This document shows positions 1-40,137 of a stretch of 40,137 nucleotides of DNA, in pieces. The DNA comes from Escherichia phage vB_Eco_Bam. The translations under genes and the position numbers were made by a program. Under the pieces are notes generated by a model. That model did no database searches, was not told where the DNA came from, and saw nothing but the letters and a program-made list of their open reading frames with translations. The stretch lies in sequence record OW991346, one strand, 5' to 3'. The first letter of the stretch is position 1. Every line of letters starts with the position of its first letter.

Positions 1-2685
1 ATGATTAACTTTGATAACATTCAGCGTAATGACTTCTCTGATGTGAAGAACGCCATTATGCCATTCAACGTACTGGCTGATGCTTACGGTGAATATCTGG
101 CTGGTGAACAACTGCGTTTAGAGCATGAGTCCTACCAGATGGGCGAGGAACGTTTCATCAAGGCGTTCGAGTCTGCCTGTAAGCGTGGTGAACTCGGTGA
201 TTCTCTGGTGGCTCGCCCGTTACTGGAAACCTTGGTTCCTGCACTGAGTGAAGCAACTAAAGCATTCTTAGCTCAAGGTGGTCGTGGTCGTCCGCATGTG
301 TCTAAGCAATACCTGAGCCGTATTGACACCGACCTTGCTGCCTTTATCACCATCAAAGTTGTGCTGATGTCCTTGGGTTCTCCTGCGACAGGCAAAGTAA
401 ACAATCACGGTGCTGTTACTGGTGCTAACATGCAGTCAGTCTGTATGTCTATCTCCAAGGCTATCGAGGAGGAGTGCCGCTTCGGTCGCATTCGTGAAGA
501 AGAAGCACAGCATTTCAAGAATCGCGTTAAACCATCGCTGGATAAGCGCCAAGGTCTGCTGTACAAGCGTGAGTACATGAAGGCTGTTGAAGCTGGCATG
601 ATTGCTAAAGGCGAGTTGGATAGTCACTTTGAGGAGTGGCCGCGCGATGAAGCATACCATGTTGGTGTCAAGATGTTGGAGCTGCTGATTGAATCAACTG
701 GTCTGTGCGAGATTGTACGCAAGAACGCTGGTAATCCTAAGTTAGACCGCTACGAAGTGGAACTGACCGAAGAATACGCTGACAAGCTGACCTCTCGTGT
801 GTCTGCCTTGGCTGGTATCTCACCTGTTAAGCAACCTTGTGTAGTACCACCTAAGCCTTGGACTGGTATCATCGGCGGTGGCTATTGGGCAAAAGGTCGC
901 AAGCCTTTGCGTCTGATTCGTACCGGAACTAAACGCGCTCTGATGCGCTACAACGATGTGGATATGCCAGATGTGTACAAAGCTATCAACATCATTCAGA
1001 ACACCGCTTGGAAGGTCAATGCGGACGTGCTGAAGGTAGCTAACGAGATTGTCTACTGGAAGCATTGCCCTGTTGAAGACATCCCACAACTGGACAAGCT
1101 GGATAAACCTGTACGTCCTGAAGGTATTGATGAAGATGAAGCCCTGCTGAAGAAGTGGAAGAAGAACGCTGCGACCATCTACCGCAAGGAGAAAGCCCGT
1201 CAGTCTCGCCGCTTGTCTCTTGACTTCATGATGGCACAAGCTAACAAGTTCGCTCAGTACGATGCCATTTGGTTCCCGTACACAATGGACTGGCGCGGTC
1301 GTGTATATGCTGAGCCAATGTTTAACCCACAAGGTAACGACCTGACCAAAGGTCTGTTAACTTTCGCTAACGGCTGTGAGCTGGGTTCTGAAGGTGCTTA
1401 CTGGCTGGCGGTGCATGGCTCCAACTGTGCGGGTGTCGATAAAGTATCACTGGACGACCGCGTTAAGTGGGTGTACGAGAACGAAGAAAACATCTTGGCA
1501 TCCGCTGAGAACCCATTAGACTGCACTTGGTGGGCGGAACAAGACTCCCCATTCTGCTTCTTAGCATTCTGCTTCGAGTGGGCAGGGTACGTTAAGTCTG
1601 GCCGTAGTGAAGGCTATGTGTCTCACCTGCCACTGGCATTCGATGGTACTTGCTCCGGTCTGCAACACTTCTCTGCAATGCTGCGTGATGAAGTTGGTGG
1701 TGCTGCTGTTAACCTGCTGCCTGCTGACAAACCACAAGACATCTACGGTATTGTTGCCCAGAAAGTAAACGTCCTGTTGGAGCGTGACCTGTTGAACGGC
1801 ACCGAGGACAGCACCAAGATTGTTGTCGATAAGAAGACAGGTGAACAGATTGAGAAGTTTGTTCTGGGTACACGTAACGCTGCTAAACAATGGCTGCAAC
1901 ACGGTGTAAACCGTAGCGTAACCAAGCGTTCTGTGATGACTCTGGCATACGGTTCCAAGAAGTACGGCTTTGCCGAGCAAATCATGGAGGATACTTTACG
2001 TCCTGCCATTGATAAAGGCGAAGGTAATCAGTTCACTGCACCTAACCAAGCTGCAATGTATCTGGCTGGTCTTATCTGGGACTGTGTATCAACTACCGTA
2101 ATCGCTGCGGTACAAGCTATGGAATGGTTGCAGAAGTCCGCTGCTCTGATTAGTTCAGAAGTGCGAGACAAGAAGACCAAGGAGCTGTTAAAGCCTGCTC
2201 TGCCTATTCACTGGACTACTCCTAACGGGTTCCCTGTTTGGTCAGAGTACATGATTCAGGAGGAGAAGCGCATTGAAGCGACTCTGTTTGGTGAACTGCG
2301 TATCCGCAACACTATCAAGCTGCGTGATACCGCCAAGATTGACGCTCAAGCTCAGGCTTCTGGTATTGCACCTAACTTCATCCATAGCAACGATGCGTCT
2401 CACCTGCAAATGACCGCTGTGTACTGCCACGATGTGTACGGGATTGTTGACTTTGCATTCATCCACGACTCATTCGGTTGTCACGCTGGTAAAGCTCACC
2501 TGCTGTTCAAAGGTGTGCGTGAGACAATGGTTAAGACTTACAGTGAACACGATGTAATCGCTGAGTTCTATGAGCAATTCGCTGAGCAACTGCACGAGTC
2601 CCAACTGGACAAGATGCCAGCTCTTCCTGAGAAGGGTAACTTAGACCTGAACGAAATCCTGAAGTCACTGTACACTTTCAGTTAA
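1..2685 (+). CDS. gp1: DNA-directed RNA polymerase, single-subunit T7-type (gene 1)
   Basis: 894-aa ORF; N-terminus MINFDNIQRNDFSD and blocks such as WFPYTMDWRGRVYA, DGTCSGLQHFSAMLRDEVGG, FIHDSFG and the C-terminal LPEKGNLDLNEILKS match T7 RNAP (883 aa) along the whole length from memory. Window starts at its ATG. Confidence 0.97.
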   Translation: MINFDNIQRNDFSDVKNAIMPFNVLADAYGEYLAGEQLRLEHESYQMGEERFIKAFESACKRGELGDSLVARPLLETLVPALSEATKAFLAQGGRGRPHVSKQYLSRIDTDLAAFITIKVVLMSLGSPATGKVNNHGAVTGANMQSVCMSISKAIEEECRFGRIREEEAQHFKNRVKPSLDKRQGLLYKREYMKAVEAGMIAKGELDSHFEEWPRDEAYHVGVKMLELLIESTGLCEIVRKNAGNPKLDRYEVELTEEYADKLTSRVSALAGISPVKQPCVVPPKPWTGIIGGGYWAKGRKPLRLIRTGTKRALMRYNDVDMPDVYKAINIIQNTAWKVNADVLKVANEIVYWKHCPVEDIPQLDKLDKPVRPEGIDEDEALLKKWKKNAATIYRKEKARQSRRLSLDFMMAQANKFAQYDAIWFPYTMDWRGRVYAEPMFNPQGNDLTKGLLTFANGCELGSEGAYWLAVHGSNCAGVDKVSLDDRVKWVYENEENILASAENPLDCTWWAEQDSPFCFLAFCFEWAGYVKSGRSEGYVSHLPLAFDGTCSGLQHFSAMLRDEVGGAAVNLLPADKPQDIYGIVAQKVNVLLERDLLNGTEDSTKIVVDKKTGEQIEKFVLGTRNAAKQWLQHGVNRSVTKRSVMTLAYGSKKYGFAEQIMEDTLRPAIDKGEGNQFTAPNQAAMYLAGLIWDCVSTTVIAAVQAMEWLQKSAALISSEVRDKKTKELLKPALPIHWTTPNGFPVWSEYMIQEEKRIEATLFGELRIRNTIKLRDTAKIDAQAQASGIAPNFIHSNDASHLQMTAVYCHDVYGIVDFAFIHDSFGCHAGKAHLLFKGVRETMVKTYSEHDVIAEFYEQFAEQLHESQLDKMPALPEKGNLDLNEILKSLYTFS

Positions 2686-2704
2686 TAACACCCACTATGG
2701 GACA
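2683..2704 (+). promoter_or_regulatory. phage RNAP promoter, variant (TAATAACACCCACTATGGGACA)
   Basis: Matches the consensus core CACCCACTAT; initiating region GGGA instead of TGGAGA. Directly after the gene 1 stop. Confidence 0.5.
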
Positions 2705-2722
2705 GACAATCCGGTTTGTCCC
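2699..2722 (+). other. 5' leader hairpin at the transcription start
   Basis: GGGACAGAC-AATCCG-GTTTGTCCC, 9-bp stem beginning at the predicted +1, analogous to the stem-loop at the 5' end of T7 late transcripts. Confidence 0.5.
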
Positions 2723-2749
2723 TAATTACTTAACATTTAGGAGGATAAA

Positions 2750-3247
2750 ATGGTTGACTTTTCTGCTGTTGCTGCTGTTGGTTGTGGTGTTCTGAGCATT
2801 GTGTCTTGCGTCCTGATGTCTAAGCGAAGCATGGACAAGGAAGACATGAAGGTACTGCGCGGCCAAGTCCATGAGTTGAACCAAAAGCTGAAGGCTGAAA
2901 AAGAGTACAACGAGTACATGAAGAAAGACTACAAGTCACGCGAGATTGACTGGATGGGCAAGGTCATTGATGAACAACGGGTAGCCAAGGTGCTGCGTGA
3001 CGAGTTAGGTAAAGCACGTAAGCAACTGAACGAGAAGTTACAACCTGCTACTGTGCAGTGTGACGGGGTGTCTATCCGCTTGGACTCCAAGACTTCAATG
3101 AACTTCTCGGTAGGAAAAGTGATTAAAGAACTGTCACTCTCTGTGCTCGGTAACACTGTGACGGTCACTGTAGTTAAACACAATGGAATTGTTAAATCAC
3201 ATACATTCCAGAACGTGAGCTATAGTTACCGACAAGCGCAGCAATAA
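2750..3247 (+). CDS. hypothetical membrane-anchored coiled-coil protein
   Basis: 165-aa ORF with RBS AGGAGG 7 nt upstream of ATG; N-terminal hydrophobic helix (FSAVAAVGCGVLSIVSCVLM), then a charged heptad-like region, then a beta-rich C-terminus. No recognisable T7 counterpart. Confidence 0.6.
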   Translation: MVDFSAVAAVGCGVLSIVSCVLMSKRSMDKEDMKVLRGQVHELNQKLKAEKEYNEYMKKDYKSREIDWMGKVIDEQRVAKVLRDELGKARKQLNEKLQPATVQCDGVSIRLDSKTSMNFSVGKVIKELSLSVLGNTVTVTVVKHNGIVKSHTFQNVSYSYRQAQQ

Positions 3248-3254
3248 CAATAAC

Positions 3255-3293
3255 TTAGGGTAGTCTGTAATGGGCTACCCTTTTGTCGTTTGT
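3255..3293 (+). terminator. rho-independent terminator (early terminator, TE-like)
   Basis: 9-bp stem AGGGTAGTC / GGCTACCCT with 7-nt loop, followed by TTTTGTCGTTTG. Confidence 0.6.
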
Positions 3294-3303
3294 TAATGCC
3301 ACT

Positions 3304-3325
3304 AATTAACACCCACTATTGGAAT
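3304..3325 (+). promoter_or_regulatory. phage RNAP promoter (AATTAACACCCACTATTGGAAT)
   Basis: Near-perfect match to the ~18-copy consensus AATTAACACCCACTATTGGAGA; first of a tandem pair. Confidence 0.7.
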
Positions 3326-3458
3326 ATAATGACAATAACACTAAGTCTATAAACATTAAGTCTATAACTTATTGTCTATACATTTTGTCTTATTGTTATA
3401 TTAATTATTTAACACCCACTATTGGAAACATTAAGTCTAAACACTAAGAGGAAACATT
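3326..3458 (+). other. candidate primary origin of replication (tandem promoters with AT-rich repeated element)
   Basis: AT-rich tract between and after two tandem phage promoters containing repeated TAAGTCTATAA / TTGTCTATACA motifs. T7's primary origin has the same architecture after gene 1. Confidence 0.4.
3407..3428 (+). promoter_or_regulatory. phage RNAP promoter (ATTTAACACCCACTATTGGAAA)
   Basis: Consensus match; 103 bp after the previous promoter; precedes the methyltransferase gene. Confidence 0.7.
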
Positions 3459-4184
3459 ATGTTAGGTGGAGCACCATTTCAGATTGTACAACCTAAAGAG
3501 CCAGTGAAGTTCGGTGGATTAGGTCACGCTAATGTAGGCATAAAGTCATTACCTAAAGACCGTGGTGTATCATGGTCTGACTTCTATAAGGGTCGCTTAG
3601 GTCAGTCCTATGTTAGTCATGTGTACAAGAACTATAAGGTACATATTGAAGCTATTCGCAGATACATCATTCAGCTATCGCTCAGTAAGAACAGCTCAAT
3701 CAAACCACTACGTGTAGTCGAAGCTGGTTGTGGTATCGGGTCTATCACACTGAACCTTGCTGATATGTCAGACCATAAGACAGTTATCTGCTCAGGCTTT
3801 GATGTGTCAGAAGGACAAGTTGTTAACTCTCGTGAGAACGCATTGCTTAACAATGTGGGTGACAGAGTGTCCTTTCATAAAGGTGACATCTTTAATAGTG
3901 ACGTATATAAAGATGCCCACATCATTCACTCTCATGGTGTCTTAGAACACTTCAGTGACGATGACATTATGAAAATCCTATTGACACAACTCAGTTCTCC
4001 TAACGTTCGGTATGTCATTCACTATGTACCACTGGAAGGATGGAAGACTCCCTCTTATGGTGATGAACGCCTGTTACCGCTGACACATTGGGTCAATGAG
4101 TTCGCTCCTACCCGTACCGTTGCGTTCAACGATGGTAAAGACGCTGTGCTAATCTGGGACGTTGAGTCTTTACTTCGCAATTAA
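3459..4184 (+). CDS. class I SAM-dependent methyltransferase (substrate unknown)
   Basis: 241 aa; motif I VVEAGCGIGSIT, acidic post-I residue in ICSGFDVSE, motif II VSFHKGDIFN, motif III HSHGVLEHF. No DPPY/NPPY amino-methyltransferase motif seen. Downstream of a phage promoter. Confidence 0.8.
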   Translation: MLGGAPFQIVQPKEPVKFGGLGHANVGIKSLPKDRGVSWSDFYKGRLGQSYVSHVYKNYKVHIEAIRRYIIQLSLSKNSSIKPLRVVEAGCGIGSITLNLADMSDHKTVICSGFDVSEGQVVNSRENALLNNVGDRVSFHKGDIFNSDVYKDAHIIHSHGVLEHFSDDDIMKILLTQLSSPNVRYVIHYVPLEGWKTPSYGDERLLPLTHWVNEFAPTRTVAFNDGKDAVLIWDVESLLRN

Positions 4185-4200
4185 CACCCACTATTGGAGA
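4179..4200 (+). promoter_or_regulatory. phage RNAP promoter (AATTAACACCCACTATTGGAGA)
   Basis: Exact consensus; overlaps the methyltransferase stop; precedes ligase. Confidence 0.8.
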
Positions 4201-4282
4201 ACATCGTGTATGAACACTGCTGATATTCTCGCTATCAACTCTATGTTTCAATCCTTATACAAATCCATTGGAGGTAATTCAA

Positions 4283-5254
4283 ATGTTTACAATCAATCCG
4301 GCAAAGCCAGTAGCGTACAAAGAGTCAGCGATTCAGAAAGCTCTGGACAAGTCCGGTTCCCTAATCGCAGACCGCAAGTACGATGGAGTCCGTTGCCACA
4401 TCGTGATTAAACCCACGGCTGACATCAATGGTCGTCCTGCTGCCCGTGCGTACTTCCTGAGTCGTACTAACAAGATGATTGCTGCCTTGCGTAGTGCTTG
4501 GTTGAGCAACGAGGAGCAGCTAGCCTTGGGTCAATTCCTGCAAGAGTCACGCTGGCCTGAAGGCATTGTGCTGGACGGGGAGGCGATGGTTAAAGGTATG
4601 GACTTCAATGCTTCTTCAGGTCGCCTGCGGTCAGACGCTCAGTTACCACTAAGTCAATTGACCTATGTGCTGTACGGTGTGTTGCCTGCTTCTGAGTTGG
4701 AAGCATCCGAGACTGCTGACTTGAGTCTGTCCAATGTGATGATTCAGGTTATCTCTCAAGTCACCATCCATCAGCTAAAGGAACTGCTGAAACCTATTGA
4801 CTGGCAACTGGCTGAGTCATGGGACGTGTACGACATGGAGCAAATCAATGAGCTGTTTGAAGAACAGTTATCATTAGGCCGTGAAGGTCTGGTACTTAAA
4901 GACCCTATGGCACCGTGGAAGCGCGGAAAGAAAACCGGATGGTGGAAGGTGAAGAACGAAGACACCATTGACGGTAATGTAGTTGGCGTAGTGTGGGGAA
5001 CTGAAGGCAAGGCCAATGAAGGCAAAGTGATTGGCTTCGAGGTCTTACTAGAGAATGGCGTTGTGGTGAATGCCTGTGGTCTGACTCAAGACCAGATGGT
5101 TCGATTCACTAGCAACATCAAGTTGAACCCTGATTACTACAAAGATTGGGCTGTTCAGGTTAAGTTCATGGAGCGTACACCTGATGGTTCACTGCGTCAC
5201 CCTAGCTTTGACTGCTGGCGTGGCATGGCTGGGCATGAAACGGAGAAAATGTAA
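4283..5254 (+). CDS. gp1.3: ATP-dependent DNA ligase (T7 gene 1.3-like)
   Basis: Ligase motif I KYDGVRC (adenylation lysine). ATG at 4283 follows RBS GGAGGT; the track ORF begins at an upstream TTG at 4268. Confidence 0.9.
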   Translation: MFTINPAKPVAYKESAIQKALDKSGSLIADRKYDGVRCHIVIKPTADINGRPAARAYFLSRTNKMIAALRSAWLSNEEQLALGQFLQESRWPEGIVLDGEAMVKGMDFNASSGRLRSDAQLPLSQLTYVLYGVLPASELEASETADLSLSNVMIQVISQVTIHQLKELLKPIDWQLAESWDVYDMEQINELFEEQLSLGREGLVLKDPMAPWKRGKKTGWWKVKNEDTIDGNVVGVVWGTEGKANEGKVIGFEVLLENGVVVNACGLTQDQMVRFTSNIKLNPDYYKDWAVQVKFMERTPDGSLRHPSFDCWRGMAGHETEKM

Positions 5255-5491: not shown

Positions 5492-6232
5492 ATGATTCAT
5501 GTACATCTGCCAACAATCATTGGTATCTGCGCTCATGCACCACGTTCAGGTAAAGACACTCTGGCTGACTACATCGAGCGAGAAGCTGAGACCAAGGGTC
5601 TGCGCTATTTCCGTATTGCCTTCGGTGACTTGCTGCGTGAGGTAGTATCAACACTGTTCGGTATGAACTCTCGTGACTACGTTATGGCTGCTCTGCTGGG
5701 TTCCATGAAAGACGTAGCTCATGGTCGGTACAGTATCCGTAACCTAGAGAACGAATCCCTTAAAGAGTTCCTGATTGGAACCTTGGGATTAGACCCAGAC
5801 GAACCACGTTCCCCACGTTTCTATATGCAGCGTGTAGGCAACGACTACGTTAAGGGTCACTTAGGTCTTGAGAGCATGTGGGTTGACGCTGTGGGTACAC
5901 AGATTACCACTCGCCTGTTGTACGGTAACGCTCCTGACTTGGTGATTATCACAGATGTCCGCTCACCTAATGAGTTCGACTATGTGACTGAATGTGGGTT
6001 CTCGGTTGAAGTTAAGACTCAGGGCTTCCCTGCCTTGACTCACTCTGCTAAACCTGACACCTCTCACCCTGTAGAGAATCACCGCTTTGACTGTGACTTT
6101 GTGTTCACCAATGTGTATGGTGACATGCAGTCCCTTCAGTATCAGCTCCGTGAGTCTGGTCTGATTGATGCAGTCATTGAGCGTAACGAGATATTGAAGC
6201 AACGTGTATTTGAACAGGAGGATTACCAGTGA
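5492..6232 (+). CDS. deoxynucleoside monophosphate kinase, T4 gp1-like P-loop type
   Basis: P-loop context GICAHAPRSGKDTLADYI resembles the T4 dNMP kinase N-terminus (SGVKRSGKDTTADFI) from memory. Unlike T7 gp1.7, which lacks this P-loop. Track ORF begins at TTG 5477; ATG at 5492 chosen. Confidence 0.7.
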   Translation: MIHVHLPTIIGICAHAPRSGKDTLADYIEREAETKGLRYFRIAFGDLLREVVSTLFGMNSRDYVMAALLGSMKDVAHGRYSIRNLENESLKEFLIGTLGLDPDEPRSPRFYMQRVGNDYVKGHLGLESMWVDAVGTQITTRLLYGNAPDLVIITDVRSPNEFDYVTECGFSVEVKTQGFPALTHSAKPDTSHPVENHRFDCDFVFTNVYGDMQSLQYQLRESGLIDAVIERNEILKQRVFEQEDYQ

Positions 6233-6396
6233 AGCGATTCGTTATCCATCTTGAACGTGAAGGTTCCAATGAGGAAGAACGCACTGTTATCTTGGCGCGT
6301 GACCTAGACCATGCACTAGACAAAGCTCACTCTTTGTACGGTGAGGACGTGGTAACTCGTGTCCGTCCTGAATTAACACCCACTATTGGAAACTAA
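6229..6396 (+). CDS. gp2: host RNA polymerase inhibitor (T7 gp2-like)
   Basis: 55-aa ORF missing from the ORF track (below its length cut-off). GTG start 6 nt after RBS AGGAGGA; C-terminal ...GEDVVTRVRPELTP matches the T7 gp2 ...FEVTRVRPCVAPK region. Confidence 0.75.
   Translation: MKRFVIHLEREGSNEEERTVILARDLDHALDKAHSLYGEDVVTRVRPELTPTIGN
6371..6392 (+). promoter_or_regulatory. phage RNAP promoter (AATTAACACCCACTATTGGAAA)
   Basis: Consensus match inside the 3' end of the gp2-like gene. Confidence 0.7.
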
Positions 6397-6401
6397 ACTC
6401 T

Positions 6402-6451
6402 AAGATAAAACTCAAGGTCATTCGCACAGAGTGGCCTTTATGATTTATCTT
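6402..6451 (+). promoter_or_regulatory. RNase III-type processing site (two-stem hairpin)
   Basis: Upper stem AAGGTCATTC / GAGTGGCCTT (10 bp with G-U pairs), lower stem AAGATAAA / TTTATCTT, internal loop ACTC / TATGA; member of a six-copy family. Confidence 0.55.
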
Positions 6452-9052: not shown

Positions 9053-9074
9053 AATTAACCCTGACTATTGGAAA
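9053..9074 (+). promoter_or_regulatory. phage promoter-like element, divergent (AATTAACCCTGACTATTGGAAA)
   Basis: Three changes in the recognition region (CCCTGACT vs CACCCACT); may be weak or non-functional. Confidence 0.4.
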
Positions 9075-11083: not shown

Positions 11084-11131
11084 GTTACATACTCAAGGTC
11101 ATCCGTAATGGGTGGCCTTTATGAATGTAAT
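11084..11131 (+). promoter_or_regulatory. RNase III-type processing site (R3.8 analog)
   Basis: Upper stem AAGGTCATCC / GGGTGGCCTT, lower stem GTTACAT / ATGTAAT; directly after the lysozyme stop, as T7 R3.8. Confidence 0.55.
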
Positions 11132-13774: not shown

Positions 13775-14110
13775 ATGGCTGCGCGTAAAACGCCTGTTGT
13801 TCGACCTCTCCGCTTCCATACTCACCCTAATGGGTGTATCACCTGCGTATCTCATAAAGCCAACCATGATGGATACTTTCGTTACAAGGTTGGTTCATCC
13901 CGTAATGGGACTGCCAAGATGTTCATGTTCCACCGATTCGTCTGGGAGCATAAGCATGGTGAGATACCAGAAGGCTACACTATTAACCACAAATGTAAGA
14001 ATCGAGGTTGCCAAAATGTAGACCATATGGAATTACTGAGTGTCACTGAACACGCTGCGGAGACTAATCGAAACAGATACAGGAAGATTAAACACCCACT
14101 ATTGGAGTAA
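13775..14110 (+). CDS. HNH endonuclease (putative homing endonuclease)
   Basis: 111 aa; HNH-type motif HRFVWEHKHGEIPEGYTINHKCKNRGCQNVDHMELLSVTEH; RBS AAGGAGGT. The 3' end overlaps a phage promoter. Confidence 0.8.
   Translation: MAARKTPVVRPLRFHTHPNGCITCVSHKANHDGYFRYKVGSSRNGTAKMFMFHRFVWEHKHGEIPEGYTINHKCKNRGCQNVDHMELLSVTEHAAETNRNRYRKIKHPLLE
14087..14108 (+). promoter_or_regulatory. phage RNAP promoter, variant (ATTAAACACCCACTATTGGAGT)
   Basis: Core CACCCACTATTGGAG intact, upstream AT-rich part shifted; lies within the 3' end of the HNH gene. Confidence 0.5.
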
Positions 14111-17235: not shown

Positions 17236-18840
17236 ATGGCTGAAGTTAAACGTGAAGGTCTAGCTGCTGAAGGTGCAGCCAAGACATATGAGCGTTTGAA
17301 GAATGACCGTAACGACTACGTGACCCGTGCAGAGGACTGTGCCAAGTACACCATTCCTAGTCTGTTCCCTAAGGATTCAGACGATGGTGGTACGAGTTAT
17401 ACGACTCCTTGGCAGTCCATTGGTGCTCGCGGTCTGAACAACATTAGCGCAAAGGTAAACCTAGCGTTGTTCCCTGTAGGTGCGCCTTTCTTCAAACTGA
17501 ATATCTCTGAGCTAGAGCTGAAGCAAATCATCACCGATTCGTCTGCACTTCAAGATGTAGCACAAGGTCTGTCGATGGTTGAGCGTATTGTTCTTAGCTA
17601 CATGGAGGCCAACGGTTATCGAACTTCTCTGGTTGAAGCTATTCGTCAACTCTTTGTTAGCGGTAACGTGCTGCTGTACGTGACCAATCCTGACGAGATG
17701 ATGGATGGTGAAATGGCTGGTCTGAAGGTCTACCGATTGCCGTCCTATGTAGTTGAACGAGATGGATTCGATAACGTCTTGCAGATTGTAGCAGTCGATA
17801 AGATTGCCCGCGTAGCGTTACCTGAAGACATCCAATCTGCTATCGCTGAGGAGACTACCGATGAAAACCTGACAGAAGAAGTCGAGATTTACACTCACAT
17901 CTACCGTAACTCTGAGACACAAATGTTCACAGTTTATCAGGAGATTGAGGGTGAAATCGTAGCTGGCTCTGAAGGTGAGTACCCATTGGATGCTTGCCCT
18001 TGGATTCCTGTACGTCTTATCAAGATGCCTAACGAGGACTATGGACGTTCGTTCGTAGAAGAATACCTCGGTGACTTGAAGTCATTGGAGGCTCTGTACG
18101 AGGCTATGATTAAGATGTCCATGATTGCCGCTAAGGTTCTGTTCATGGTTAACCCTAACGGACAGACTCAGGTTCGCCGTATGGCTAAGGCCAACACAGG
18201 TGACTTTGTAGCTGGTCGTAAGGAAGACATCGGAGTATTCCAGTTAGAGAAACAACAGGACTTCAACACAGCGAAGATTGTAGCTGACACCATTGAGGCT
18301 CGCTTGTCGTATGCCTTCATGTTGAACTCTGCGGTACAACGCGGTGGTGACCGTGTTACTGCTGAGGAGATTCGCTATGTGGCTGGTGAATTGGAGGACA
18401 CTCTGGGTGGTATCTATTCGTTACTGTCCCAAGAGTTACAGATGCCTTTAGTCCGCATCCTGTTGCGTGTACTGGAAGCTACCTCGAAGATTCCTAACTT
18501 GCCTAAGGAAGCTGTTGAACCTGCTGTTGCTACTGGTCTGGAAGCTCTGGGTCGTGGTCATGACCTTGACAAGCTGAATATGTTCGTTAACGGTATTGCT
18601 ACTCTGTCTGCAATCCAAGACGAAGACCTGAACATGCGTGACATTAAGATGCGCTACGCTAACTCTCTGGGTATGGACACTGCTGGTATGATTCTGACTC
18701 CTGAGGAGAAACAACAGAAGATGGCTGAAATGGCTCAACAACAGGCCATGATGCAAGGTGGTGCCGCTGCGGGTGGCGTAATGGGTCAAGCTGGTGGTCA
18801 AGCAATGGCTGAACAAGCTGCTCAGATGATGCAACAATAA
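17236..18840 (+). CDS. gp8: portal (head-to-tail connector) protein (T7 gp8-like)
   Basis: 534 aa (T7 gp8 is 536 aa); position immediately before scaffold and capsid; Gln/Ala/Gly-rich C-terminus. Confidence 0.95.
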   Translation: MAEVKREGLAAEGAAKTYERLKNDRNDYVTRAEDCAKYTIPSLFPKDSDDGGTSYTTPWQSIGARGLNNISAKVNLALFPVGAPFFKLNISELELKQIITDSSALQDVAQGLSMVERIVLSYMEANGYRTSLVEAIRQLFVSGNVLLYVTNPDEMMDGEMAGLKVYRLPSYVVERDGFDNVLQIVAVDKIARVALPEDIQSAIAEETTDENLTEEVEIYTHIYRNSETQMFTVYQEIEGEIVAGSEGEYPLDACPWIPVRLIKMPNEDYGRSFVEEYLGDLKSLEALYEAMIKMSMIAAKVLFMVNPNGQTQVRRMAKANTGDFVAGRKEDIGVFQLEKQQDFNTAKIVADTIEARLSYAFMLNSAVQRGGDRVTAEEIRYVAGELEDTLGGIYSLLSQELQMPLVRILLRVLEATSKIPNLPKEAVEPAVATGLEALGRGHDLDKLNMFVNGIATLSAIQDEDLNMRDIKMRYANSLGMDTAGMILTPEEKQQKMAEMAQQQAMMQGGAAAGGVMGQAGGQAMAEQAAQMMQQ

Positions 18841-18860
18841 TTAACACCCACTATTGGAGA
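18839..18860 (+). promoter_or_regulatory. phage RNAP promoter (AATTAACACCCACTATTGGAGA), copy 1 of a duplicated pair
   Basis: Exact consensus, overlapping the portal stop codon. Confidence 0.8.
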
Positions 18861-18965
18861 GTCAACAACAGGCCATGATGCAAGGTGGTGCCGCTGCGGG
18901 TGGCGTAATGGGTCAAGCTGGTGGTCAAGCAATGGCTGAACAAGCTGCTCAGATGATGCAACAAT

Positions 18966-18987
18966 AATTAACACCCACTATTGGAGA
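18966..18987 (+). promoter_or_regulatory. phage RNAP promoter (AATTAACACCCACTATTGGAGA), copy 2 of a duplicated pair
   Basis: Exact consensus, 127 bp downstream of copy 1 within a tandem duplication. Confidence 0.8.
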
Positions 18988-19034
18988 GATGAACAATTTG
19001 TCTCTCCTTAGTGATTAACTTAATGGAGGAAACA

Positions 19035-38750: not shown

Positions 38751-38772
38751 AATTAACACCCACTATTGGAGT
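38751..38772 (+). promoter_or_regulatory. phage RNAP promoter after the last gene (phiOR analog)
   Basis: AATTAACACCCACTATTGGAGT; no ORF downstream; followed by a structured repeat region. Confidence 0.75.
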
Positions 38773-38782
38773 ATACGACAAT

Positions 38783-38863
38783 AAGAGGGAACATTAAGTC
38801 TATAGACACTAGGAGAGTCGACCTTAGAGTAGGCACTCAGTCTGACCTTAGTGTTCCCTCTTT
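38783..38863 (+). repeat. inverted repeat AAGAGGGAACA ... TGTTCCCTCTT flanking a 59-bp spacer
   Basis: Perfect 11-bp arms at 38783-38793 and 38853-38863; spacer contains palindrome GTCTATAGAC and direct repeat GACCTTAG(A/T)GT; directly after the last phage promoter. Confidence 0.7.
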
Positions 38864-39039
38864 GTCTTGGGAGTATTCTTCATTATTAGAATAACTCCCT
38901 TCTCTTTGTGTAGAGACACTGAGGCGTATCTTGGAGGTGATTGTATGAGGAAGACTACCCTTATGGTCACCTACTATGTGGTTAAAGTTACCTTCTTGGT
39001 TTACCTGTTGGTAACCCATGCTGGCGCTTAATCTCGGTA

Positions 39040-39510
39040 TCCTTATCAGTCTACCTACGATTAAGTGTCTAGTGTCAATACCCTTATGTTAGTGACCTTA
39101 TGTGTTAACCTTAGGGTAGGTTGGTCTTAGTGTCGCCTACCTTATGTTGTTAACACTATGTTAGTCCATTTTGTACAACACTAGAAAAATCTGAGTGACC
39201 ATCTCACATATCAAGACCCATTTAATCCCCCCCATAGGGGTCAAACCTTATGTCCATCCCTTATGTCATTCCCTAAGTCTATCATTTTGTCTATCAATAG
39301 GTTTTAACTCTCGGTTGAGGTGGGGACAATAGGTGGAGACTATGGGTTTGTATCTCTATGTCTCCCTATCTGTATAGACCTTGTGTCTCCTCTCTATGTC
39401 TCTACCCTTATGTCTCCTCTCTATGTTCTATCAACTAGGCAGCATCCTACCTTATGTTAGACCCTAGGTCAATAACCTTATGTCATAGACCCTATAAATA
39501 GACCTTATCT
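39040..39510 (+). repeat. array of ~12 short direct repeats (consensus CCTTATGT) in the genome-end region
   Basis: Motif recurs at irregular spacing, e.g. ACCCTTATGTTAGTGACCTTATGTG, CTACCTTATGTTG, AACCTTATGTCCATCCCTTATGTC, CTACCCTTATGTCTCC, CTACCTTATGTTAG, AACCTTATGTCATAG; includes a 27-bp imperfect tandem at 39379-39432. Confidence 0.7.
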
Positions 39511-39521
39511 ATATAGACCAT

Positions 39522-39543
39522 AATTAACACCCACTATTGAAGA
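39522..39543 (+). promoter_or_regulatory. phage promoter-like element with altered initiation region (phiOL analog?)
   Basis: AATTAACACCCACTATTGAAGA: recognition region perfect, +2 is A instead of G. Confidence 0.4.
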
Positions 39544-39574
39544 ACAACAATCTTAATTATTTTAATATTGAGTA

Positions 39575-39603
39575 TTGACATTAGAACTTAGTGTCTATAG
39601 TAT
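39575..39603 (+). promoter_or_regulatory. sigma70-type host promoter (A1-like)
   Basis: TTGACA, 17-bp spacer, TAGTAT; AT-rich UP-like tract (TCTTAATTATTTTAATATTGAGTA) immediately upstream. Confidence 0.6.
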
Positions 39604-39703
39604 GGCGTCCATCGAAGGGAAACACGGAAACGGTGCGACTCTGAGATTACAGCGTCAAGCGGTACAAGTAGACAGCCTGCTAAGTCATACGAACAACAGG
39701 TAC

Positions 39704-39732
39704 TTGACAACAGAAACAAGAAACACTAAGAT
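39704..39732 (+). promoter_or_regulatory. sigma70-type host promoter (A2-like)
   Basis: TTGACA, 17-bp spacer, TAAGAT; same hexamers as recalled for T7 A2. Confidence 0.55.
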
Positions 39733-39774
39733 ACACCACAACGAAACAACAACAGAAACACCAACAAATAGGAG

Positions 39775-39803
39775 TTGACAATGTTCAAGTTAAAATGTAA
39801 AGT
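39775..39803 (+). promoter_or_regulatory. possible sigma70-type promoter (A3-like), overlapping a small ORF start
   Basis: TTGACA, 17-bp spacer, TAAAGT; overlaps the RBS and ATG of the 39781 ORF, so one of the two calls may be wrong. Confidence 0.3.
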
Positions 39804-39924
39804 GATGCCAATCCACAACAAACAGGGTCACACAGTATGTACACCTGATGGATTTGCGATGAATGCTCGTGTTGAACGACTGAAGCGTGAACTCAAGATG
39901 AATCGTATGCTGAACAACATCTAA
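39781..39924 (+). CDS. hypothetical small early protein
   Basis: 47 aa; RBS AGGAG 6 nt upstream of ATG; downstream of sigma70-type promoters; basic. Confidence 0.4.
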   Translation: MFKLKCKVMPIHNKQGHTVCTPDGFAMNARVERLKRELKMNRMLNNI

Positions 39925-40054
39925 TAGCTACGATAATCAAGCAACACTGCTGGTCTTGTTGTACTACGCAACTGCAAATGTAGTCGGGACGATGAAACTG
40001 CTATCCCTAAAGTTCTTTAACAATCTGGTATAAAGCGCATGTGTTGAGTTAGAA

Positions 40055-40100
40055 AGTGATTGACTCAAGGCTGCTGAATGTAGTAGCCTTTATGACAAGC
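40055..40100 (+). promoter_or_regulatory. RNase III-type processing site in the early leader (R0.3/R0.5 analog)
   Basis: ACTCAAGGCTGC-TGAATGTA-GTAGCCTTTATGA: same flanking consensus (ACTCAAGG...GGCCTTTATGA) with a divergent upper stem. Confidence 0.4.
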
Positions 40101-40137
40101 ATTTAATTTCAGCCACTATAAGATGGAGACAACAACA

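Follow-up and report, generated by a model that had tools for sequence, protein, structure and literature searches.

The window analyzed here, the whole stretch of 40,137 nucleotides from Escherichia phage vB_Eco_Bam (OW991346), represents a T7-like Studiervirinae phage of the vB_Eco_Mak/Titus type, and across positions 2600–4300 it is 99.9–100% identical to vB_Eco_Mak (OX001577.1) and vB_Eco_Titus (OX090892.1). It is circularly permuted: its first base is the ATG of gene 1, which codes for the RNA polymerase (1–2685), and the true genome ends lie near 39.2–39.4 kb, so that the labels right-end and left-end are valid only after re-linearizing and the promoter at 38753 becomes the phiOR equivalent. 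A module consisting of two phage promoters, an AT-rich tract between them and a leader running into a SAM-methyltransferase gene begins 621 bp 3' of gene 1, beyond a single 165-aa ORF and a terminator-like hairpin; after re-linearizing, it is found ~4.25 kb from the inferred left end, i.e., at about 10.6% of the genome (Table 1). No published promoter or origin analysis of Mak/Titus/Bam-type phages was found (PMC10974468 mentions Mak or Titus without discussing either), and a search of IMG/VR by polymerase protein found no close relatives.

The hairpin just upstream of the module, to judge from its form, probably ends early transcription by the host polymerase and marks the left edge of the module, which would thus open the region transcribed by the phage polymerase. 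The phage promoter 18-mer, TTAACACCCACTATTGGA, can be recognized at 18 genome sites when up to three mismatches are allowed, every one of them on the + strand, against a chance expectation of 0.04. As the first-pass annotation had described, two of these, both exact (3306 and 3409), stand 103 bp apart around an AT-rich tract with repeats. The 35 nt around the second promoter share 80% identity with the region of the first. The exact 18-mer has no match in IMG/VR (0 matches); single matches in eight metagenome contigs, which otherwise lack similarity to the phage, were set aside as chance occurrences or unrelated promoters. Another apparent tandem pair, at 18841 and 18968, was likewise rejected as a second origin-like module, being inside an exact tandem duplication of 127 bp (18735–18861 = 18862–18988) that spans the end of the portal gene and a promoter and was taken to be an assembly artefact. 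The Titus record (40010 bp) lacks this duplication and the Mak record has an extra 127 bp as the overlap of its two ends; the duplication looks like a k=127 assembler overlap that was internalized on contig rotation.

The tract between the promoters has a GC content of 0.19 against a genome mean of 0.47 and remains the GC minimum of the genome at all widths tested (60 to 150 bp); the 80-bp minimum of calculated duplex stability also falls here (−83 versus a mean of −110 kcal/mol). Since most intergenic DNA in T7-like phages adjoins a promoter, an AT minimum beside a promoter is partly expected. The repeat TAAGTCTATAA occurs exactly at 3342 and 3357, followed by the degenerate copies TTGTCTATA at 3372 and TTGTCTTAT at 3385. 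The tract can also be drawn as a long imperfect hairpin, with arms of 33 nt that are 79% complementary: folded alone as RNA, 3321–3408 reaches −18.4 kcal/mol (z −4.3; 0/200 shuffles equal), and with the flanks added the z-score is only −1.2 as RNA and −1.6 as DNA. An Rfam scan of 2600–4300 at E up to 1 gave no match, and no sigma-70 promoter was found within the tract on the + strand. A 42-codon ORF at 3319–3447, hypothetical in the Titus annotation, was rejected as a gene: its TTG start is within the promoter, it has neither a ribosome site nor a Pfam hit, and it crosses the second promoter.

By AT-richness, the tract between the tandem promoters is followed in the window by the tract at the phiOL-like promoter and then by the stretch over phiOR. 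The second of these comes right behind the phiOL-equivalent promoter and overlaps an A1-like sigma-70 promoter (TTGACA, 17 nt, TAGTAT) at 39575–39603, and the third is mostly upstream of its promoter, not downstream. A collapsed terminal-repeat region similar to that of T7 can be made out at 39195–39520. The early region that follows (39600–40137) is tiny, with a single 49-codon ORF between the host-type promoters and gene 1; in a related Logan contig, L019, the counterpart (400–2400) holds ocr, a T7-type kinase and other early genes.

Table 1. Positions of the module, of features towards the genome ends and of arrays in relatives (window coordinates unless a relative is named)
Feature	Position	Strand	Remarks
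Terminator-like hairpin, AGGGTAGTCTGTAATGGGCTACCCT then TTTGTCGTTT	3257..3291	+	11 pairs, 5 G-C, T-rich tail; identical in L019
First phage promoter core	3306..3323	+	exact 18-mer, common to 11 other sites; +1 G inferred at 3321 via T7 consensus alignment
AT-rich tract	3324..3408	+	85 bp, 81% A+T; lowest GC and least stable duplex genome-wide
Long imperfect hairpin	3329..3399	+	arms 3329-3361 / 3367-3399; 28 pairs including 2 G-U; 1x1 mismatches
Two tandem AACAYTAAGTCTA units	3337..3364	+	15 bp apart; degenerate units after, 3369-3395
Second phage promoter core	3409..3426	+	exact 18-mer; +1 inferred at 3424
Unstructured AU-rich leader	3427..3458	+	AACATTAAGTCTA 3427-3439; AACACTAAGAGG 3440-3451 (Shine-Dalgarno); 7-nt spacer
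phiOR-equivalent promoter	38753..38770	+	last phage promoter; 59 bp 3' of large terminase gene
phiOR leader hairpin	38777..38866	+	long and stable; 16-nt arms 94% complementary; z −3.1 to −4.1
Second phiOR-leader hairpin	38869-38899	+	
CCTTATGT-type repeats	39195-39520 region		more than 10 copies, arrays on both sides
CCCCCCATAGGGG palindrome	39228-39240		T7-like; terminal-repeat-like region
CCCTATCTGT pause-like site	39364-39373		terminal-repeat-like region
phiOL-equivalent variant promoter	starts 39524	+	one mismatch; just before first host-type promoter; region 39524..39603
Sigma-70-type promoters, n=3	starts 39575, 39704, 39775		after phiOL-equivalent
Promoter/array upstream of gene 1	L002 2552-2720		
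Promoter/array upstream of gene 1	L006 19515-19683		reverse complement
Promoter/array upstream of gene 1	L007 2052-2159		
Promoter/array upstream of gene 1	L009 18286-18386		
Promoter/array upstream of gene 1	L020 4920-5029		

The repeated leader element

A genome-wide search for the element behind the second promoter places the exact 13-mer AACATTAAGTCTA at only three sites, two in the module (3352 and 3427) and one after phiOR (38790). Its near-verbatim recurrence after the right-end promoter, as claimed in the first-pass annotation, is borne out by the alignment of 3427–3451 with 38790–38815, which over 26 columns has 23 identities, one mismatch and two one-base gaps, a score of 33 that was reached by 0/1000 shuffles. 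Two other promoter-leader pairs in the genome are more alike still (scores 50 and 35), so that leader similarity as such is common in this genome. The related motifs said to occur near the left-end host promoter are also there, as looser matches: TAAGTCTAT at 39274 in the terminal-repeat-like region, and TTAGTGTCTATAG (39586–39598) within the spacer and −10 region of the first sigma-70-type promoter.

By composition, the element is leader-like. The methyltransferase gene has its Shine-Dalgarno region in the 3' half, AACACTAAGAGG, the leader ending in AAGAGG 7 nt 5' of the ATG at 3459, and one inserted T is all that separates the 5' half, AACATTAAG, from AACATAAGGAG, the context in which ribosome sites usually stand in this phage. 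An ordinary ribosome-site context in two relatives, JELG-KS1 and phiA014S, is AACACTAAGGAGG, and two late leaders of the window, behind the promoters at 14089 and 32522, have related AATGTCTATWAAC units that follow a 5' stem-loop and precede the ribosome site. The RNA from 3424 to 3461 folds with an MFE of 0 kcal/mol, i.e., with no structure. Thus, what had been put forward as an origin element of ~25 bp is, as far as its sequence goes, a reiterated leader sequence, the local version of T7's ACTTTAAG, and not origin-specific, since its 3' half is a ribosome-binding site and its 5' half resembles one.

The copy after phiOR begins in the 5' arm of the phiOR leader hairpin, where AACATTAAGTC pairs with GACCTTAGTGTT, and no plausible start codon or ORF was found after it. 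The tract leader and the phiOR leader both begin with GGA(A/G)TATA..GACAATAA and both carry AACATTAAGTC in the 5' arm of their hairpins.

The module beside the T7 origins

The primary origin of T7 lies ~15% from the genetic left end and has an A+T-rich region of ~60 bp immediately downstream of a promoter. Its primary origins are designated phi1.1A/phi1.1B, and secondary origins such as phiOR and phi6.5 are also recognized (PMC8373140, citing Rabkin and Richardson 1988). When the AT-minimum scan was run on T7 as a control, the four lowest-GC 85-bp windows fell at or just after phiOL, phi6.5, phi1.1B and phiOR, and the phiOL tract was more AT-rich than the primary origin; the scan therefore finds T7 origins without ranking the primary above the secondary ones. 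In the window, the promoters at 3306 and 3409, as exact + strand 18-mers, face rightward as in a T7-type origin, and an AT-rich region follows right after the first of them, with just 35 AT-rich nt after the second.

The likeness to the T7 primary origin (phi1.1A, R1.1, phi1.1B and the gene 1.1 leader; T7 nt about 5848–6006) is one of order: a promoter, a hairpin, a promoter, and then an unstructured AU-rich leader of TTAAG type with a ribosome site. In both phages, the two promoters point rightward at a spacing of 75–103 bp, and the whole is among the AT-richest spots, in the left 10–15% of the genome; its place shortly after gene 1 corresponds approximately. In T7, the segment 5848–5922 folds with a z of −2.7 and 5923–6006 is unstructured, the gene 1.1 leader being AT-rich, with CTTAAG and CTTTAAG throughout. 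Beyond this promoter logic the two lack sequence homology, and the parts are also differently disposed: the AT tract of T7 comes after both promoters, whereas that of the window lies between them and is itself the hairpin, and in the window an extra 165-aa ORF and a terminator-like hairpin stand between gene 1 and the module. The T7 origin is proven in function, whereas that of the window is a candidate.

The hairpin between the tandem promoters occupies the place of the T7 RNase III site R1.1 (z −2.7 in T7, −4.3 in the window), but the sequences are unrelated, the stem in the tract having 28 pairs, nearly all A-U, broken at regular intervals by 1x1 mismatches. The conserved irregular hairpin of RNase III sites (GGTCATTCGCA...GTGGCCTTTATGA) is not seen in 3329–3399; hairpins of this canonical type are found in the window at 6408–6445 and before the promoters at 11131 and 16001. 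That at ~6408–6445 is a near-verbatim homologue of T7 R1.1 (AAACTCAAGGTCATTCGCACAGAGTGGCCTTTATGA) and follows the promoter at 6373, instead of standing between tandem promoters as in T7; GTGGCCTT(T/C)AT-type ends are also seen before the promoters at 11131 and 16001.

A parallel might also be struck with the T7 secondary origins phiOR, phi6.5 and phiOL, in that the window's final phage promoter, downstream of the terminase gene, and a variant one just ahead of the first host-type promoter coincide with AT ranks 2–3. At the window's phiOR, unlike the T7 secondary origins, the AT-rich part is upstream, and the 100 nt downstream are GC-containing stable hairpins. A motif common to phiOR and the internal module is absent in T7 and present in the window, T7-Ah, L020 and ICP3. 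The leaders of T7 late genes (gene 10, whose 'epsilon' region, AACTTTAAG, precedes the ribosome site) resemble that of the window in that a short A/T-rich motif with TAAG at its end comes immediately before the Shine-Dalgarno sequence. Both phages use their motif again in many leaders and repeatedly in the tract of the origin or origin candidate, but it is lineage-specific: AACAYTAAG(TCTA) in the window versus ACTTTAAG in T7, where it fills the origin tract and the leaders of genes 6.5, 9, 10 and 17. Olins and Rangwala, in 1989, reportedly ascribed an enhancer function to the T7 leader motif.

Other marks of an origin are less telling. Cumulative GC and AT skew is monotonic in the window and gives no signal, and is uninformative here, as it is monotonic across T7's known origin too. 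An iteron-type origin would have origin-specific repeats and a dedicated initiator; no initiator gene is evident in the annotation, and the repeats recur outside the module, near the genome ends, behind phiOR and in leaders with ribosome sites. The replication proteins resemble those of T7: a DNA polymerase and an ssDNA-binding protein are annotated in the window, and the primase-helicase shares 61% identity with T7 gp4 and retains the zinc-binding motif. With the primase site defined as 5'-(G/T)2GTC-3' (PMC12839067), the + strand has two sites, beginning at 3372 and 3385, and the − strand one, beginning at 3331, and five GTC cores on the + strand of the tract and leader (3345, 3360, 3374, 3387 and 3435; two in the form 5'-TTGTC-3') arise from the repeat itself. 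The density of such sites at the module is not above the genome average and T7's own origin sites are on the other strand, so that enrichment of primase sites was rejected as origin evidence; they are present at the module and not diagnostic. The proposal in the first-pass annotation of an origin-like module holds up for the anatomy, the tandem promoters and the AT minimum closely resembling the T7 primary-origin region, but not for the recurring element as something specific to origins.

Related phages

The contig L019, with a polymerase 96% identical to that of the window, keeps the terminator, promoter, tract, promoter and leader at the same 103-bp spacing, with all 117 non-promoter bases identical, in flanks that diverge by 5–10% (gene 1 by 6.9% and the 165-codon ORF by 9.8%). 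The perfect conservation of the tract might be taken as proof of selection; it is weakened by five other identical runs among the six of at least 99 bp in 3.4 kb, and with divergence thus mosaic the identity is weak evidence of constraint. L019 has no methyltransferase gene: the ATG of the leader opens a 16-codon ORF, and the ligase gene comes next, with its own promoter. The module is therefore not kept merely to express the methyltransferase, and its retention independently of the cargo, as far as the two sequences tell, favors a cis-acting role over a purely gene-specific leader.

The promoters of L019, including both in the module, have the same three co-ordinated changes (at −10, −8 and −7), with TTAACCCTGACTATTGGA standing where the window has TTAACACCCACTATTGGA at every promoter found. 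Differences between the two polymerases cluster at residues about 755–775 and 103–131 (nt 301–400 and 2201–2300 of gene 1), that is, in the specificity loop (RIEATLFGELRIRN versus VIDTVLFGNLRLQN, a stretch that takes in the positions equivalent to T7 N748 and Q758) and close to the AT-recognition loop. Read together, these differences are a natural and recent co-switch of polymerase and promoter specificity. One window promoter, at 9055–9072, is exactly of the L019/T7-Ah type, TTAACCCTGACTATTGGA, and not of the window's own consensus; it might be left over from the change of specificity, or else be a promoter that is weak by design.

Farther afield, in T7-Ah and PZL-Ah152, whose polymerases are 66% identical, AACAYTAAGATAA arrays come behind a phage promoter and form the AT minimum, with one copy after phiOR; on the + strand of these genomes AACAYTAAG occurs only in the array and after phiOR, against a chance expectation of ~0.3 copies per strand and genome. 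In L020 (69% identical polymerase, T3-type promoters), ACATTAAGTCTAAACATTAAGTCTAAACATTAAGT follows a promoter and AACATTAAGTTAGTC follows phiOR, with AACATTAAG in both places and in one copy elsewhere, and JELG-KS1 and phiA014S have an arrangement similar to these three. In all five, the array immediately precedes gene 1 and extends into the ribosome site of that gene, so that relatives with polymerases 61–69% identical carry it upstream of gene 1, not 3' as in the window. ICP3 and Vibrio N4 have ATCTTTAAG arrays after the ligase gene, with copies after phiOR and also in late-gene leaders; the tandem promoters of N4 are 40 bp apart, and the array folds into a hairpin (z −2.4 and −3.0). Taken as a whole, a promoter and AT-array in the left 6–15% of the genome together with a motif copy after phiOR are seen in T7-Ah, PZL-Ah152, L020, ICP3 and Vibrio N4. 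On these comparisons, conservation extends to the combination of a promoter-linked array and a further copy downstream of phiOR, and not to the motif or its exact position.

The polymerase gene itself has a promoter for the phage polymerase directly upstream in the Aeromonas phages and in one related metagenomic contig (the five L entries of Table 1), so that gene 1 would be self-activating; in T7-Ah, a host-type promoter (TTGACA, 18 nt, TATAAT) is embedded in the array upstream of gene 1.

Origin candidate and alternative readings

These patterns suggest, at a middling level of confidence, that the module is the counterpart of T7 phi1.1A/phi1.1B, i.e., a candidate promoter-driven, AT-rich replication origin that would at the same time provide the leader for the first gene that the phage polymerase transcribes. 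By analogy with T7, the phage RNA polymerase would start at 3321 and 3424, as the exact promoter matches imply, and transcription from the first promoter would traverse the 85-bp, 81% A+T tract, which by its calculated stability should be the easiest site in the genome to melt. The phage DNA polymerase might then extend short transcripts rightward, using them as primers, with a gp4-type primase-helicase loading on the displaced + strand, where five GTC cores are on offer, and priming leftward synthesis. The hairpin of the tract, whether as RNA or as displaced + strand, may conceivably hold the region open; alternatively, one may speculate that it is an RNA-processing site in the same position as T7 R1.1. 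The second promoter would restore transcription into the unstructured leader with its strong ribosome site. The repeated AACAYTAAG would then be a reiterated ribosome-site-like leader, a source of the AT-richness and near-palindromic character of the tract and not a dedicated recognition site.

The same anatomy can be accounted for as a pure gene-expression module, the main alternative though a less likely one, in which the duplicated promoter boosts the onset of middle-gene expression and origin activity is incidental or absent; the hairpin would then be a 5' stabilizer or an RNase III-type site, and the AACAYTAAG units ribosome-site-like standby or enhancer units. Much of the leader evidence fits: the Shine-Dalgarno half of the element, the single T separating AACATTAAG from AACATAAGGAG, the ordinary use of AACACTAAGGAGG in JELG-KS1 and phiA014S, the AATGTCTATWAAC motifs in late leaders, the commonness of the counterpart motif CTTTAAG in late-gene leaders of ICP3, N4 and T7, and the fully unstructured leader of the promoter at 3409, which suits translation initiation. 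The arrays of the Aeromonas phages and L020, running straight into the ribosome site of gene 1, likewise fit an expression role, and duplications of T7 promoters arise readily under selection for more transcription (PMC6171733). Yet L019 keeps the module before a mere 16-codon ORF, with the ligase served by its own promoter, and the phiOR copy has nothing plausible to translate downstream. The two readings are not exclusive, since leader and origin roles coexist in the same T7 DNA. Far less room is left for a neutral by-product, which we consider very improbable: a tandem duplication of promoter and leader, with slippage of a 15-bp unit, would have left functionless AT-rich filler. The two promoter regions do resemble a 103-bp duplication, the units have a 15-bp period, and near-palindromic TTAAG-type units form hairpins unaided; but the arrangement is the same in L019 despite the divergence of its flanks and a complete promoter switch, and analogous arrays recur across lineages whose polymerases are just 61–69% identical.

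The pairing of module and phiOR raises a further alternative, decidedly unlikely in our estimation, that AACATTAAG(TCTA) or its long hairpin is a sequence-specific cis element common to both and recognized by a phage or host factor, for example coupling phiOR-primed synthesis to terminal-repeat duplication and packaging, or setting the hand-off of the RNA primer to the DNA polymerase. It would explain the confinement of the exact 13-mer to the two loci, their shared GGA(A/G)TATA..GACAATAA starts and their long hairpins with the element in the 5' arm. The restriction of AACATTAAG in T7-Ah and PZL-Ah152 to the array and the position after phiOR, nearly repeated in L020 with its one extra copy, agrees with it, as does the presence of ATCTTTAAG in the same two places in ICP3 and N4, where it is also in late-gene leaders. 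Chung and Hinkle are said to have reported in 1990 that T7 packaging needs phiOR-proximal sequences, with a hairpin intermediate described. Against this, the phiOR copy of the putative element in T7-Ah falls in a loop and not in a stem, the motif is also ordinary ribosome-site context, and the position of the array relative to gene 1 shifts between lineages. In a fuller form, which remains unlikely, AACATTAAG(TCTA) would have been kept across an Escherichia/Aeromonas clade of Studiervirinae together with a promoter-proximal hairpin, linking module and phiOR through primer hand-off or replication-packaging coupling, and would have moved as a cassette from upstream to downstream of gene 1.

If the T7-type origin reading is correct, the module is an expected look-alike of the T7 origin and leaves the current view of how replication starts in T7-group phages unchanged. 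It would locate the origin for a little-characterized group of T7-like coliphages (Mak, Titus and Bam) and would be useful for annotation and for phage-origin plasmids with orthogonal polymerases. In evolutionary terms, the origin layout of T7 would here have been rebuilt from lineage-specific, ribosome-site-like repeats rather than inherited as sequence.
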